A stretch of DNA of 34,903 nucleotides from Candidatus Parcubacteria bacterium (lineage in GTDB: Bacteria; Patescibacteriota; Minisyncoccia; Phycocordibacterales; UBA918): the NCBI GenBank assembly GCA_046050355.1, contig JBJOPW010000012.1:1-34903 (forward strand), read 5' to 3'. Made by a program: the position numbers and the translations under genes. Below the pieces are notes generated by a model that was not told where the DNA came from, made no database searches, and was given only the letters and a program-made list of their open reading frames with translations. The stretch's first letter is position 1; each line of letters starts with the position of its first letter. This document shows positions 26,872-34,780 of the stretch, in pieces.

Positions 26872-28134
26872 CTAGACGGAGGCGACTCCAAGGAGCGCAA
26901 ACAATTCGGTTTCACTTACCTTCTTCACCTCGCCAGTGGCACGTTCGACAACTTCGTAGAGTCCTTCGGCTTTACCCTTTTTACTCACGACCACACGGTA
27001 TGGAAGACCAATGAGGTCACTATCGGCAAACTTCTCTCCCGCTCGCGCATCGCGGTCATCGTAGAGCACTTCTACCCCGGCCGCTTTGAGGTTCGCATAC
27101 AGACCATCCGCCCAGTCGCGAATTTCTCCTTCTTCGATATTGAGTGCAACGAGGTGGACGAGGTATGGCGCAACTGCACGAGGCCAGACAATACCCTTCT
27201 CGTCTGCAAACTTTTCAACCAGCACACCAATGAGTCGAGTCACGCCAATACCGTATGAACCCATCCAAACTGGGACATCATTCCCAGATGAGTCTTTCAT
27301 GGTTAATCCCAAATCAGTCGCTTTCTGCTGGCCAAAGTTAAAGATATTACCCACTTCTGCGGTAGTGACTTTGGTGAGTTCATCCGCACTGACTCCAAGA
27401 CTGGCAAGGGTTTCGTCATTGAGGACTTCCTCATTGATGGCAATACCCTTTTCGCGATTGATGTAAGTGATATCTTCACCTGCTTCACAGATGGTTTGAA
27501 ACTCATGTGAGAACTTGGTAAAAGCACCGCCGGCAGCAAAGGTCACAAATGTATCCTCCCCAATACCAAGTCGTTCAAACACTTTCATGTACGCCGGCTT
27601 AGTTGATTCGTAGTAGGCCATGTGACTCGCTTCATCTGCAGCAAACGAGTACATATCTTTCATAATGAACTCGCGACCACGCATCACTCCACTCTTGGCT
27701 CGCATTTCGTTGCGTAACTTTGTTTGAAATTGGTACACCGAAATTGGCAGATCTTTATAGCTCGTGATGTAGTTTTTTATCATCTCGCCAATTGGTTCTT
27801 CGTGACTCCACCCAAAACCAACTTCACCACCAGCTTTGAGTTCGGACTTAAACCATACATCAACCACATCATCAGCCCAGCGCCCGGTACTCTCCCACAA
27901 CTCTTTGCGCTGAAGTGCGGTCATGATCAGTTCCTGACCGTCAATCGCATTCATTTCTTCACGAACGATTTGTTTGATTTTATCTTGGACGCGTAACCCG
28001 AGGGGAAGGTACGAGTATACTCCAGCCATTTCTTTGGCAATATACCCCGCTCGGATAAGGAGCTGGGCGTTCTTGGCCACTTCGTCTGCTGGTGCTTCTT
28101 TGCGTGTTTTTGTAAAGAGTTTTGACTGGCGCAT
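26872..28134 (-). CDS. proS: Proline--tRNA ligase (short form without an editing insertion)
   Basis: MRQSKLF, LLIRAG, AGVYSYLPLG, RGREFIMKDMYSF, EVGNIFNFG, MGSYGIGVTR, DDRDARAGEKFADSDLIG. Confidence 0.96.
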   Translation of the reverse strand: MRQSKLFTKTRKEAPADEVAKNAQLLIRAGYIAKEMAGVYSYLPLGLRVQDKIKQIVREEMNAIDGQELIMTALQRKELWESTGRWADDVVDVWFKSELKAGGEVGFGWSHEEPIGEMIKNYITSYKDLPISVYQFQTKLRNEMRAKSGVMRGREFIMKDMYSFAADEASHMAYYESTKPAYMKVFERLGIGEDTFVTFAAGGAFTKFSHEFQTICEAGEDITYINREKGIAINEEVLNDETLASLGVSADELTKVTTAEVGNIFNFGQQKATDLGLTMKDSSGNDVPVWMGSYGIGVTRLIGVLVEKFADEKGIVWPRAVAPYLVHLVALNIEEGEIRDWADGLYANLKAAGVEVLYDDRDARAGEKFADSDLIGLPYRVVVSKKGKAEGLYEVVERATGEVKKVSETELFALLGVASV

Positions 28135-28313
28135 AAAAATCCCCTATTACCTCCGAATAAGTCTAGGAAGTGTATCACATCCACAAATTAATGGCCAAAA
28201 TATAGTGATAAATCAATGAGGCATAGCCACCCCCAACCGAAAAACCTTCGGTTGGGGTTTTTCGGTTACCTTATCCTATGGACATTACTTGGCATTATCT
28301 CAAATAATATCAT

Positions 28314-28345
28314 TTCTCTTTCTATCATATATGATAGAAAGAGAA
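28314..28345. promoter_or_regulatory. Perfect 32-bp palindrome 1 (candidate operator) abutting the stop of the TrpR-like gene
   Basis: ttctctTTCTATCATA|TATGATAGAAagagaa. Confidence 0.8.
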
Positions 28346-28765
28346 TCATTCTTTTGGCCAAGGAAAAAGTAAAAAATGGAGCGGGTATTTCATTTTGAGA
28401 GCGGTGAGACCAAACGGGTTTTCTTTGGCTATACGCTTTCGCCGCTTCAGAGTTTCAACTTGGACCTCTTTATTTAGATAATCACCATAATCCGGTAGTA
28501 GCCCACGTAGCCACATCTCTACTTTTGCAACGGTGTTCGGTCCCACATGGAGACGAGCACCGATTTCGTCATACCGCTTTTGCTCAAGCAGCATTCGTGA
28601 TATCCAAATTCTTCGACCAAGCATGATTTGTTCACTCGGTGTTAGCAACCCTTCCAAAAATTTCTCTAATTGCTTGTTTGTTTTGGCTGTCTTCGCAGCC
28701 TCAAATAATACCTTACGAGTAAAGAGTTGATCGGCAGCTGATAAATCACTTGGTTTTCTTTTCAT
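28346..28765 (-). CDS. TrpR-like (YerC/YecD) helix-turn-helix repressor with a C-terminal extension
   Basis: FLEGLLTPSEQIMLGRRIWISRML....YDEIGARLHVGPNTVAKV matches TrpR-family LLTxxE...RR...HTH. Confidence 0.85.
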   Translation of the reverse strand: MKRKPSDLSAADQLFTRKVLFEAAKTAKTNKQLEKFLEGLLTPSEQIMLGRRIWISRMLLEQKRYDEIGARLHVGPNTVAKVEMWLRGLLPDYGDYLNKEVQVETLKRRKRIAKENPFGLTALKMKYPLHFLLFPWPKE

Positions 28766-28767
28766 GA

Positions 28768-28797
28768 TTTCATTCTATCATATATGATAGAATGAAA
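28768..28797. promoter_or_regulatory. Perfect 30-bp palindrome 2 containing the extended -10 of the TrpR-like gene
   Basis: tttcaTTCTATCATA|TATGATAGAAtgaaa; the minus strand reads TGaTAGAAT-6 nt-ATG. Confidence 0.82.
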
Positions 28798-28854
28798 GAG
28801 CAAGAAAAGTTAAATATTTTGCAAGTTAATTGTTTGGAGAGTTCAATATTTTAA

Positions 28855-28892
28855 GCAAAAACTTTCTATCATATATGATAGAAAGTTTTTGC
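28855..28892. promoter_or_regulatory. Perfect 38-bp palindrome 3
   Basis: gcaaaaactTTCTATCATA|TATGATAGAAagtttttgc. Confidence 0.8.
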
Positions 28893-29015: not shown

Positions 29016-30110
29016 CTAAAATAGCTTAAGGATGTCATTGTAAGTAACAACAACCATCAACAGCATCAACGCGGCAAAGCCAAGCAGATTCAAGCGCCCC
29101 GCCCACACTGGATTAATTGGTCGCTTGGTGATAGCTTCAATCGCGACAAAAACCAGTCGTCCCCCATCAAGGGCTGGTACCGGAAGCAGGTTAATAACTG
29201 CCAGGTTGAGTGAAATCACCGCCGTAAAGTACAAGAGTGACGTAAATCCAAACGCCGCCGCCTGTCCCACGTGGTCAACAATGCCAACAGGGCCTGTCAC
29301 TTGTGAGAAGTCGGCTTGTCCAACAATCGCATTACCAAGAAGGATCACGAGACCAACGGTAATTGCCTTGAGCATGTAGATTGTTTGCTTGGTGCCCTCA
29401 ACTATTGCCGCACCAAATGAATACCGTTGGTTTTCGAGGTAGCCGGTATCAATACCGAGAATAGCCTTGTCAGGATTAGCTTTATCGACTCCACGCACCG
29501 GTGTGAGTGTCACTGTCTCTTCCTGGTCATCGGCACGATATGTCAAAGTAATTGGCGCACCATTGCTCGTAGTGACAAAATCTCGGAATGATTCTGGGGT
29601 TGGGTTCGAAAGCACTGCTTCGTCACGACTGACAGATACGATAATAGCCTTCAGTGGCAAATCTTCAGCTGGACTACCAGGTACCGCCCCCAGAATCATG
29701 AGTGGTGTACCGGCCGCAACACTATCAGACCCAACGCGGATAGCGGTCCCCAGCATCAGAATCGCCACAAGTACTACCCAGGCCAATAGTACGTTCATAG
29801 TCACTCCCGCAATGAGCACAACTGCCTGTGCCCACTTCGGACGAGCACTAAAGGTACGTGCCTGGTCAGTCGCAGAGAGGACTTCGCCATCAACGTCACC
29901 ATTCTCACCAAGGATCTTTACAAAGCCACCAATCGGCAGTGCGTTAAGCGAATACACCGTCTCCCCTCGCCGCCATGAAAAGAGCTTTGGTGGAAAGCCG
30001 ATGCCAAATTCATCAACACGCATGCCTGTCCACTTAGCCGTAATAAAATGCCCCCACTCATGAACCAAGATGAGTACAACAAGCACTGCCAAAAATATAA
30101 AAACGGACAT
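29016..30110 (-). CDS. rseP: RIP metalloprotease RseP (M50) with one PDZ domain
   Basis: HEWGH, FGIGFPP, LPIGGFV, AGVTMN, GSPA, GPVGI, NLLPVPALDGG. Confidence 0.95.
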   Translation of the reverse strand: MSVFIFLAVLVVLILVHEWGHFITAKWTGMRVDEFGIGFPPKLFSWRRGETVYSLNALPIGGFVKILGENGDVDGEVLSATDQARTFSARPKWAQAVVLIAGVTMNVLLAWVVLVAILMLGTAIRVGSDSVAAGTPLMILGAVPGSPAEDLPLKAIIVSVSRDEAVLSNPTPESFRDFVTTSNGAPITLTYRADDQEETVTLTPVRGVDKANPDKAILGIDTGYLENQRYSFGAAIVEGTKQTIYMLKAITVGLVILLGNAIVGQADFSQVTGPVGIVDHVGQAAAFGFTSLLYFTAVISLNLAVINLLPVPALDGGRLVFVAIEAITKRPINPVWAGRLNLLGFAALMLLMVVVTYNDILKLF

Positions 30111-31341: not shown

Positions 31342-32808
31342 TTATGCCCCACGCCGTCGTGTTTGTGAATCAATAATGTGACGAATTACCCGTCGCAAGA
31401 AATGTTCAAAGGTCTCCTCTTGTTCGTAGATAATCCCCTGTTCGTAGCGCCACCCGTTCATATAATCGGTAATACTCTGTCGAATCTCAGCCGTAGCGCC
31501 CTCAAAACGACCAGACAGAATAAGTGGCATCGGGAGATTGGCGAGCTTTTGGAAAAGTGGGTGTTGTCTCCCTTTTGGTCCTGAACCAAATACCCCACTC
31601 TTACGGAAGAGTGTCCACTCACTTAACAACTGCTCTAATCCGAGATCAACATCGGGATCAGCCAGTGGGTCAGTGTTTCCAGATCGTGCCTTTACCTCAG
31701 CGGCGGTTGGTAGATCGTGAGGTGTTTTTAGCGGGGCTTGGGCGGTTACTGGTATAACTGTTTTGGCTCGCGCGACAGTCATGTCTACTGGAGCAACGGG
31801 TGGTACAGCATCGCGTACAGGCACCGCGGGGATGATGCGTGGACGACTCTCAACAGTTGCAACTCCCTCGTCCATGGTCAGCACTGGAATCGTAGCAGCG
31901 TTAACTGGTATCGATGCCACAGACTGCTCTACCAAAGCGGCTTTTGGGATCTCTGTAACTGTCTCCGGTGCAGGAATATTCGAATTGATAAGCCGTTCTA
32001 CGTCTTTAACTACCAACTCCAATTTTGCCATGGGGGTAGCAACTTCCCCGCCACCGCCAGATACGGCCTTCATCGCTTCGAGTAGTGCTGCCATATAAGC
32101 TCGACCAACCGCATTATCAAGATCAACCAGATTAACCGGGTTACCGACCTTTTGATTGATGAACTGCTTAATTTCTGTAATACGGTTGCGGTAGGTATCG
32201 AGGGTGTGGTCTTCTTGATACGGTGGACGAAATTCTGTACTGGCTACTGGCACCGGTGCTATATCAGCTAGTTTCTCATCTACTATTGCTTTAGGCACCA
32301 TTTCTGTCGATGTAATACTAGTAGGTACAACCTCTGACTTCTCAGTACTCAAGGTATCTGGAGTAGCTGCCTCTGGTTTTTGTGTATCAACTTTTGTGGA
32401 CGAAGTAACCGCTGCTACGGTTGATGCTGATGGCGTACCGGCATGACGAACCGCTGTTGGTATAGCAAAAAATGGCACCGGTCGACTATGACCTAGTTTA
32501 GTGGCAAGACGTAAAGGGGCAACGTTGCTACTGCCCACAGCAAGCACTGGTGGGGTAGCCGGCATTGGTGTTACGGTAGTTTCGGTGTGATGTGCCGGTG
32601 TGAGTGTTTGTAGTTTGGTTGTAATAGTTGATCTGAGTGTTGTGTCGGTACTATCTTGCGTAAAGGCAAAAATCAAATCACGCAACTCGTTTTTTTCTTC
32701 TCGAGAGATGCTACTAGCACGAACTACCGCTAAGGCAGCCGCCATACCAGTGTCACTATCCAAATCAAAAACGACATCAGTCGTCAGAGAACGCACGTCC
32801 TGAACCAT
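31342..32808 (-). CDS. Hypothetical protein: three globular blocks joined by Pro/Thr/Ala-rich linkers
   Basis: 488-aa ORF co-oriented with the backbone; TGgTACTAT -10 lies 10 nt before the ATG. Confidence 0.75.
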   Translation of the reverse strand: MVQDVRSLTTDVVFDLDSDTGMAAALAVVRASSISREEKNELRDLIFAFTQDSTDTTLRSTITTKLQTLTPAHHTETTVTPMPATPPVLAVGSSNVAPLRLATKLGHSRPVPFFAIPTAVRHAGTPSASTVAAVTSSTKVDTQKPEAATPDTLSTEKSEVVPTSITSTEMVPKAIVDEKLADIAPVPVASTEFRPPYQEDHTLDTYRNRITEIKQFINQKVGNPVNLVDLDNAVGRAYMAALLEAMKAVSGGGGEVATPMAKLELVVKDVERLINSNIPAPETVTEIPKAALVEQSVASIPVNAATIPVLTMDEGVATVESRPRIIPAVPVRDAVPPVAPVDMTVARAKTVIPVTAQAPLKTPHDLPTAAEVKARSGNTDPLADPDVDLGLEQLLSEWTLFRKSGVFGSGPKGRQHPLFQKLANLPMPLILSGRFEGATAEIRQSITDYMNGWRYEQGIIYEQEETFEHFLRRVIRHIIDSQTRRRGA

Positions 32809-32847
32809 ATCACTTCCTATAGTACCACTACATCAAAAAAGTAGCAG

Positions 32848-33114
32848 TTAGTTTTCCTCAGAAATAGCTGTAGCCATGTCCGTGTTGTTGGTCTTGGTGT
32901 TTAATTTTTCGATTTCATCAGCAAAGATTTCTCCAAACTGAGGATATGTTTGTAAGAGTTGCGGTAACAGATCTTCAGCTTCTACATGCTCATCCAACCA
33001 CGTTTCAAATTGTTCTCCAGCGGCATCATCAATGCTAGCAACGTAACGTTCTATGGCTGCCATAAAAATGGCAAAGGCTCGTTCTTCTTCTGGATTCATG
33101 GTGTCGTTGGACAT
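32848..33114 (-). CDS. Small acidic hypothetical protein
   Basis: ORF from MSNDT, 7 nt after the upstream stop; helical and acidic. Confidence 0.65.
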   Translation of the reverse strand: MSNDTMNPEEERAFAIFMAAIERYVASIDDAAGEQFETWLDEHVEAEDLLPQLLQTYPQFGEIFADEIEKLNTKTNNTDMATAISEEN

Positions 33115-33121
33115 AATCAAA

Positions 33122-34780
33122 TTAATTACTCTTTGTAGTTGCTTCTGCGAGAACACGCGCACGAATCACTTCTTCCCCAGTGAGGGTTGAGTCAATTTCA
33201 TATGGCGCTTGACCTTCTGCTCGAGCTTTGATGATAAGATCGTACATACTCTTAGCACTTTCAAAGGAGATTTTCCGAACTTCAAGTTCGCGCGCTACTT
33301 CTGTTAGTGCTTGCATCATTATCTTTGTGAGTTCACCAACTGACATTGCCAGAAGCGCACGATTATCGGGAACCCGCGGTGTAAACCAGCTATCAATCAT
33401 TGCCGACGCTTTGGGTGCAATACCAAGTGATTCAAGTTTTTCATTGTACGCTTTACTATATTCGAGAATACCACCCGGATAGTTTTCAGGACTAGTCACG
33501 GCATCTGTGATGGCTTCAGACGCACTACCCGATTCTTCGACGGTATCAGAAATTATATCTACTTCTTGCGCACTCGTTTTGATGACTGGACTGTCTTTTA
33601 CAAGTACTCCTGACGTACTGGCAGAGTCGTAGGTGGCTAGAACTTTTTTAGCCACTGCATCAGCGAGGTAACGTGCTGTCATCTGTAGTGGTACGACGGC
33701 ACCAGCAGGTACCATATCCTTATCAGTAAGCTTGAGATTGTCGAGGGCTCCCGGTGTTGCAAGATAAGCAGCCAATGCCTCCTCTACCACCGGCAAACGA
33801 TCACCCTCAGATAAAACAGCCAAATCACGAGCAAATGATTTCGCTACGAGCTGGGTAAGGTTATCTCCAGCCTCTGCTACCTCGGTATGGGGAACTTTAA
33901 GGTACTGGCGGTATTCATTAAACCGTTGATCAAGTCTTTCGACCGGATCGTGGTAATTAATTTTTTCACCGGGGAAAGTGACGTTCCTTTGACCACTTCC
34001 TACCCCAGCAGCTTTTAATCGGGTGGCATCAGCTAGAAACGCTTCTTTTTCTTCAGCTCGAAACCGACTGGCGAGTACCTCAGGAATACCAGTCGAATCC
34101 ACGGTCGCCAACAGCGGGTCGATAGCTCGGTCCGGATAGGTGGCTTCGTCTCCTTGCAAAACTTCAACCGTCGTACTCCTACTTCCTCCTGACTCCGCGG
34201 GAACAATAGTCTCTTGGTAGGCCGGGCTTTTTGGATCCACATCAACCACGGTCTCTGTCACCCCTTGGTCTACTCCTGATGACGACTGCGGTAATGGATC
34301 TTCCATGGCAGTGTTACTCTGCGGTGGCATATCAAATTGTACGGGCGATAAATTATCTGGTGCTGTTCTTTGTACGACAGCCTCTTCATACACTACTTTT
34401 GGCAGGATTTTCTCTATGGTTGAAGCTGCTGGTTGCTCAATGGCAGCACTCGCAACTGAAGGCTTGGTTTGTTCTATAGTTGACCAGACAGCATCTTGAC
34501 CAATACCAGCAATCGCATTGGTTTTTGGAACGTCAGCGGTAAAGACTGAGGCTTTGTTTCCTGCCTCTTCAGCTGATAAAAAGGTCGCAACAATTGCCGC
34601 CAGCGCCACTCTAGTTGCCGGTGTTACTCGCTTACTAATAATTTCCCGTATCCTCGATAGTCTTGATGTGGGTGTTTGTTCTTGACTCGCAACTTCCCTA
34701 GTAGCAACGGCTGGTACATTCACTATCGGTTCTTGAACAATGTCCGCATCAGCCTTTACTCGCATTTCTGGACCAAGAAC
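33122..34780 (-). pseudogene. Large membrane-anchored surface protein with degenerate LysM-like motifs, probably cut at its 5' end by an IS
   Basis: Frame stays open (VLGPE) up to the IS end at about 34781, then meets a TGA inside the IS hairpin; TM VALAAIVATFL; motifs GVGSGQRNVTFPGEKI and AEAGDNLTQLV...DMVPAGAVV. Confidence 0.55.

Follow-up and report, generated by a model that had tools for sequence, protein, structure and literature searches.

The window analysed here, that is, the whole 34,903-nucleotide stretch of DNA, carries a TrpR/YerC-family gene, P0001, between the host genes rseP and proS, together with three long palindromes (Table 1). P0001 matches the Pfam family Trp_repressor (PF01371) over residues 19-99 with 41.2 bits against a cut-off of 27; this was the only Pfam domain matched in the profile scan, and no DNA-cutting domain was found. 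A profile search with P0001 matched 3frw, 3g1c, 3kor and TrpR, and the predicted model (pLDDT 91) has TrpR chains as its top Foldseek matches, none of them at E ≤ 0.001, in agreement with the TrpR fold and helix-turn-helix (HTH) that characterize the TrpR/HisR family. P76 and N77 align with TrpR Ile79 and Ala80, and W85, a tryptophan found in 137 of 139 homologues, takes the place of TrpR Ser88. The ligand-pocket positions L41, T42, R52 and T78 are conserved. The C-terminal extension that the initial annotation had set apart from classical TrpR is a tail of about 40 residues lying beyond the Pfam match and yet conserved (Y127 in 139/139 homologues, P128 in 138/139, H130 in 136/139); it adds helices to the model, and a protein atlas search with residues 90-139 returned no usable match. 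The region was also rightly called AT-rich, with a GC content of 0.43 (GC3 0.37) for P0001 versus 0.50 for rseP and 0.49 for proS. The source genome is of Paceibacteria type (CPR), and named homologues belong to Paceibacteria and Kaiserbacteria. P0001 is a member of the TrpR structural family and not an orthologue of TrpR or HisR: its core differs from both operator consensuses and, as annotated, there is no trp or his context, trpA not being found in the 99.97% complete source genome (G000, an assembly of 17 contigs) and hisD being found in 0 of the 21 genus genomes searched. Two long ORFs (488 and 547 aa) without Pfam match occupy positions 31342-34765 of the window, upstream of a holB-like gene, frr and rseP, and elsewhere in the genome G000:C1:101608-123978 is a single ORF of 7456 aa.

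Table 1. Coordinates of the rseP-proS locus (positions in the window) and of RAYT-like genes in the source genome.
Feature	Position	Strand	Remarks
proS (class II tRNA synthetase, read as ProS)	26872..28134	minus	downstream host gene
Putative proS promoter	28169..28199	minus	shared with the empty G046 allele; limit of the insert on its downstream side
GC-rich terminator-like hairpin	28231..28267		within the insert; a second perfect inverted repeat overlaps
Downstream palindrome	28314..28345		32 bp, perfect; core 28320-28339; 0 nt from P0001 stop
P0001, TrpR/YerC-family gene	28346..28765	minus	139 aa; N-terminal TrpR fold and conserved C-terminal tail
P0001 tail motif KYPLHF	28373..28390	minus	codons 126-131
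P0001 recognition helix	28511..28540	minus	codons 76-85
Proximal palindrome	28768..28797		30 bp, perfect; core 28773-28792; 2 nt from P0001 ATG
Extended -10, TG-A-TAGAAT	28772..28780	minus	inside the proximal palindrome; 6 nt before ATG, leaderless spacing
Distal palindrome	28855..28892		38 bp, perfect; core 28864-28883; arms unchanged in G007
rseP (RseP-type M50 peptidase)	29016..30110	minus	upstream host gene
RAYT-like genes in G000 (L499-L501)	C2:111151-111995, C1:5765-6519, C1:69016-69655		each bracketed by its own palindrome family

The 20-mer TTCTATCATATATGATAGAA begins at positions 28320, 28773 and 28864, each time as the core of a perfect palindrome. Our analysis reproduced exactly the coordinates and lengths given for the three copies by the initial annotation, the contact of one palindrome with the stop codon, the 2-nt distance of another from the ATG and the presence within the latter of the gene's own extended -10. 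No fourth match was detected in the window at up to three mismatches, and none in 100 shuffles. With a hairpin energy of -21.1 kcal/mol and a T run behind it, the distal palindrome possibly doubles as a terminator. The extended -10 of P0001, read straight from the sequence, is absent from the promoter-scan output; a -10-like hexamer lies 5-8 nt before the ATG in 69 of 137 homologues versus 98 of 471 control ORFs, and an SD-like word precedes the ATG in 5 of 137 homologues.

Long perfect arms were noted as a distinctive trait of the locus. The arms are there, but the trait is shared by hundreds of other hairpins. Perfect palindromes that have no loop and measure 30 bp or more number 33 in G000 versus 0 in three local shuffles; perfect inverted repeats whose arms reach 10 bp or more number 299, and 55 of these have loops of 1-2 nt. 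At orthologous sites the core is kept and the arms differ but remain symmetric. Template switching turns imperfect inverted repeats (quasipalindromes) into perfect ones, as outlined in PMC7202029, and the site-specific arms, like the 1-2 nt loops, fit this process, which is known as a mutational one and is not known as a route by which operators spread. We infer that the arms would form after the arrival of the core, template switching perfecting the hairpins, and would be tolerated because SbcD, which was not found in G000, is missing. The suggestion that unrelated arms mark cruciform or recombination ends finds no support in view of the 299 perfect-armed hairpins of G000 and of the empty rseP-proS junctions of relatives, which retain no site; we rejected the arms as specific recombination ends on account of these other hairpins.

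We next consider what reads the core. The homologue set comprises 161 distinct proteins from 176 loci, 155 of which have enough flank to be scored. Matching palindromes stand on both sides of the gene in 138 of these 155 loci, 17 not being scored as bracketed, versus 1 of 655 control ORFs submitted to the same test, and 14 of 16 rows of distant paralogues are bracketed as well. Among bracketed homologues, the proximal site lies within 35 nt of the ATG in 126/139 (mode 7 nt), and a matching downstream site within 35 nt of the stop codon in 126/139. The five protein positions with the highest corrected mutual information with the core are 77, 76, 66, 65 and 80, which align with TrpR Ala80, Ile79, Arg69, Gln68 and Thr83, four of them being among the six TrpR DNA contacts given in PMC9413887. 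The pairing is readable: at half-site positions 6-7, N77 is paired with TC in 37/38 homologues, D77 with TG in 31/37 and T77 with CC in 15/17, and at position 5, P76 is paired with A in 42/42. When 344 residue traits were ranked by their co-change with G7 on a tree built without the HTH, D77 came first (6 same, 0 opposite). Half-site positions 5 and 6 give a weaker tree-aware signal, with residues 73 and 75 on top, not 76 and 77, and a supported-branch test of independent pairs was underpowered, its 2-5 pairs (median p 0.125-1) placing significance out of reach. In G000 itself, a 78%-identical paralogue behind rpoC has the helix GHGTIAG (GPNTVAK in P0001), another core and the same three-site layout; paralogues within one genome carry, as their sequences show, different helices together with different cores.

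Because the core co-varies with residues aligned to TrpR DNA contacts, it is very probably the operator of the P0001 protein, and the operator format of TrpR/HisR, a 20-bp palindrome read by the HTH's second helix, is matched here at the level of covariation only. A TrpR-family dimer would bind the 20-bp core, and the proximal palindrome, which covers the gene's own leaderless promoter, is probably the operator through which binding would bring about autorepression. The autoregulated module with palindromes as cognate sites proposed from the window is supported as a prediction, and two of its expected properties are observed, namely flanking sites on both sides of homologues and covariation of the core with the recognition helix. 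The homologue at L304 (G055:C1) is broken by a TGA, and its flanking sites and four more pattern matches persist. Another (L013/L308, G003:C2), with a PN helix and an eroded tail, lacks flanking sites, and its genome has no A-type pattern; the junction where it lies holds a single site in other genomes.

The position of the gene is not stable. A search for rseP in the genus matched 39 of 41 genomes, and of the 30 best loci, two of them cut short by contig ends, only those of G000 and G007 have the unit between rseP and proS. Relatives do have the empty junctions that the initial annotation proposed to look for: G046, whose RseP is 84% identical, has an empty junction that retains the putative proS promoter. 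Past the outer sites the insert continues for about 120-130 nt, contrary to the idea of a cassette ending at the outer palindromes, and no target duplication was seen in the alignments of this insert. A cassette precedes dnaG in 5 of 30 loci; G007 and G041, with an RpoC of 96% identity, lack it there. A third junction, followed by a gene that we take to be tatD, is occupied by other paralogues in G007, G041 and G046; in G000 it measures 8 bp. Judged from these junctions, the gene with its flanking sites is a self-contained unit gained, lost and relocated between host-gene junctions. Its neighbours are diverse (up to 104 pairs among 131 loci, on crude ORF calls), the downstream one being convergent in 100 of 145 loci. 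The 37 neighbour clusters scanned, of 184, correspond to housekeeping families or have no match, and none contains a transposase or recombinase; the unit lacks a mobilizing enzyme, and no RAYT-like gene was found in the 176 homologue loci. The contigs of four sequencing runs revealed no cassette deletion, circular form or cassette-skipping joint; in run X3, both outer palindromes coincide with contig breaks, and the depth of the piece between them is 7.5 versus 11.5-13.6, a pattern that contigs alone cannot interpret. Viral contigs contained 8 site matches in 2.9 million contigs; no homologue was present among 109 viral candidates, and a phage-directed site was rejected. In G007 and several relatives (L030, L037, L044, L045), a structured repeat of about 100 nt with paired GTAC words follows the rseP stop codon.

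Cores also occur away from the gene, for the most part as exact copies. The A-type core pattern has 203 occurrences in 61 genomes versus 9 for the reversed control, with at most 20 copies per genome. The subfamily gene is patchy and multi-copy across genus genomes and is absent at E<1e-15 from 40 of 61. At least two A-type copies are present in 19 of the 21 genomes with the gene versus 9 of the 40 without, for totals of 159 and 44 copies, respectively; these counts include the 2-5 flanking sites, and kin genomes are not independent. Core C has 11 exact copies in G000 and none with 1-3 mismatches, its gene there being cut by an IS200-type element. Core D has 5 perfect copies and no cognate gene found in G000, and close variants of it bracket paralogues in G007, G041, G057, G069 and G072. 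The dispersed cores sit chiefly at gene 3′ ends: in 80 regions, a non-random subset, we located 88 sites, 19 between convergent, 39 between tandem and 4 between divergent genes, 20 in ORFs (some of them doubtful) and 6 in unresolved contexts. The same junctions are used repeatedly, several of them holding a whole cassette in other genomes, and some dispersed sites are conserved at orthologous junctions across species. The dispersal pattern is plain in these genomes; that the cores were copied is what we infer from it. A third TrpR-like paralogue of the genome (L003, G000:C16:19308-19739) is cut by an IS200/IS605-type element and intact as an orthologue in G007 and G041; the ends of this element also close five other contig ends, and the 5′ part of the interrupted gene was not found at three other IS ends. 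Two further palindromes of G000 deserve mention, an identical 18-bp one right before two start codons (C4:74713 and C5:43669), one of them that of murC, and a 22-bp A-like one with a wider centre (C13:24281).

Some copies are translated. Core B occurs in frame in G000 truB (twice), murC and prmC. In murC, five extra codons are missing in 5/5 relatives; the loop site is present in 2 of the 30 best-matching genomes and also in G058, added since a site was already known there. The prmC loop of G000 has been replaced by site-bearing sequence, and several in-gene sites are such replacements, the net change being 0-5 codons. Of 56 genomes matched, the best 30 include 12 in which this loop contains a palindrome with no more than two mismatches; these palindromes are of at least four unrelated core types, several of which also bracket distant paralogues, and in G001 two of them stand in tandem. 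In 5 genomes of other families the prmC loop has no palindrome (40 of 45 order genomes fell below the match threshold). Overall, G000 has 38 in-ORF palindromes versus 20-21 in synonymous shuffles, a modest excess. The same genome encodes three RAYT-like genes separate from the P0001 unit, both of the two scanned having Y1_Tnp matches, and their palindrome families have 11-17 matches each, some at gene ends. RAYT-type repeats are found in frame in the two prmC loops of G000, G001, G018 and G064. Two variable loops of PrmC (L458-L485, genus relatives) gather palindromic DNA of several families.

We propose, in a reading whose chances we consider evenly balanced, that P0001 belongs to an autorepressed TrpR-family module whose operators spread in the manner of REP sequences through machinery that is borrowed in trans or linked to replication. 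The core would be copied as a short unit to new places; its survival is seen at the 3′ ends of genes and within protein loops that tolerate it, and it outlives its gene. A REP-like spread is favoured because the 20-mers found in one prmC loop, being unrelated, could not all derive by perfection from a single ancestral pseudo-site, and because exact copies that lack a series of degenerate ones have the look of copying or self-correction, not of tuning. The bracketing and covariation, the lability of the unit, the truB insert described below and the RAYT-type repeats in the same prmC loops speak for this reading too. Since the unit has no enzyme, copying would most likely depend on trans machinery, of the HUH/RAYT or IS200 type present in these genomes, or on replication-linked template switching, with binding of the protein favouring copying or retention of the site; this is the weakest step. 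Against copying stands possible perfection in place at truB, where relatives already have a half-site-like sequence, and in the replaced loops. Of 27 genomes with three or more A-type sites, 20 have RAYT-like genes, versus 11 of the 34 others. Against borrowing from RAYT, however, G058 (99% complete) has 19 sites and no RAYT-like match. Against a REP-like spread in general, dispersed sites are conserved at orthologous junctions and recur in the same genes, which selection also fits.

This last point keeps viable, although unlikely, a host-useful protein that acts as a roadblock or organizes the chromosome, because sites persist at orthologous places. Dispersed sites would be selected as transcription roadblocks or boundaries in a genome in which Rho was not found, new ones being recruited on each arrival of a paralogue. 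The location of sites mainly at 3′ ends and convergent junctions, the frequent convergent downstream neighbour, the conservation of cores despite changes in the arms and the repeated use of the same junctions and loops are all compatible with this function. On the contrary, it is difficult to reconcile with the absence of the subfamily gene from most genus genomes, with the perfection of the D-type and C-type orphan sites of G000, with the lack of a degenerate-site tail for core C and with the RAYT-type repeats that occupy the same loops; ordinary strong hairpins are moreover already plentiful. In chromosome-organizing pairs such as parS/ParB and matS/MatP, the gene is universal and single-copy, and the sites cluster within one region of the chromosome.

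Somewhat less likely still, the repressor itself might drive the copying of its operator, as an enzyme-free replicator in which Trp85 fills the corepressor pocket and binding is tight and independent of ligand. Bound protein would protect the 20-bp site or stall forks there, and the site, sometimes the whole site-gene-site unit, would be written into new loci without a dedicated nuclease. If this were true, an enzyme-free replicator would rewrite loops of essential proteins, and its paralogues would diverge into orthogonal specificity groups.

Two other explanations have less support than the REP-like spread or the roadblock/organizer network. A local autorepressor in which a dimer bound upstream and another bound downstream join by way of their tails, with the gene looped out between them and the dispersed copies being incidental, is improbable: the proximity of the downstream site to the stop codon and the strongly conserved tail with its extra helices speak for it, but centre-to-centre spans have no helical-phase preference, and dispersed and in-frame copies are left unexplained. 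We consider it equally doubtful that the unit is a non-autonomous element with the palindromes as recombination or transposition ends, single sites being scars or targets. The 75-bp insert of truB, missing in 4/4 relatives, spans the interval between the centres of two successive, hybrid-looking sites, as such an element could leave it; no source of the insert was found in G000. Likewise, the rpoC-dnaG junction of G012 has a gene-less site where G016 and G024 have a cassette with the same core, and other dispersed sites lie at junctions occupied by cassettes elsewhere. Yet of 51 mappable loci, 17 have neighbours that lie next to each other in G000, in every case without the cognate core (by inspection of the junctions), the rseP-proS insert exceeds its outer sites without visible target duplication, no RAYT-like gene was found in the homologue loci, and the scanned neighbour clusters contained no recombinase or transposase. 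Finally, an ordinary TrpR/HisR-type amino-acid regulon with a fixed regulator gene, which would share the fold, the 20-bp palindromic format and several conserved ligand-pocket positions, is highly improbable and was rejected as largely refuted by position and gene content, given that trpA and hisD were not found, that the core fits neither published consensus (trp, his), that divergent genes flank only 4 of the 88 dispersed sites and that the gene, which the initial annotation had allowed might be fixed at this locus, changes position.

The REP-like module that we favour shares features with several known systems. With TrpR of E. coli and HisR/YerC of Firmicutes (PF01371), as described in PMC9413887, P0001 has in common the fold, the 20-bp palindromic operator and the helix positions that determine specificity; autoregulation, common to both of these regulators in that description, is predicted for P0001. 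It differs from them by its conserved tail and its tryptophan at the Ser88 position, by sites on both sides of the gene and the lack of an amino-acid pathway to regulate, and by a family of several paralogues with different cores, labile position and exact dispersed and in-frame sites. The overall organization resembles REP-rayt-REP with a repressor replacing the transposase. As in the REP-rayt-REP units presented in PMC2817692, the gene is flanked by cognate palindromes with which it co-evolves, and the palindromes are dispersed outside genes with an abundance that tracks the presence of the gene. Unlike these units, as that source presents them, P0001 is an HTH repressor with no HUH (Y1) nuclease domain between the repeats, the symmetric AT-rich 20-mer has no constant GT(A/G)G head (by inspection of flanks), and we find 1-20 copies per genome where REP copies usually exceed 100 (PMC2817692). 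The Rickettsia palindromic elements (RPE) of PMC10969869 likewise consist of palindromic DNA translated in frame in unrelated housekeeping proteins, here TruB, MurC and PrmC. Compared with the unit of about 150 bp given there, ours is 20 bp (75 bp in one case), often replaces loop codons and is linked to a DNA-binding protein that can be identified; the alignments revealed no target duplication of the kind that accompanies the terminal repeats of MITEs. In the literature searched, whose scope left most subscription journals aside, we found no published description of a bracketed TrpR-like system.

If operators behave like REP or RPE repeats next to a non-catalytic protein, the spread of short palindromic repeats becomes testable with the enzyme taken out of the unit. 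Peptides derived from repeats are moreover seen to have been written repeatedly into one loop of PrmC, MurC and TruB. The family also provides a predicted natural collection of far more than a hundred small repressors, each paired with its operator by a readable code from residue to base, which could be used as orthogonal switches, in a CPR phylum with almost no characterized regulators. One homologue, L069, lies amid seven cognate sites, between two glycosyltransferase-type genes.
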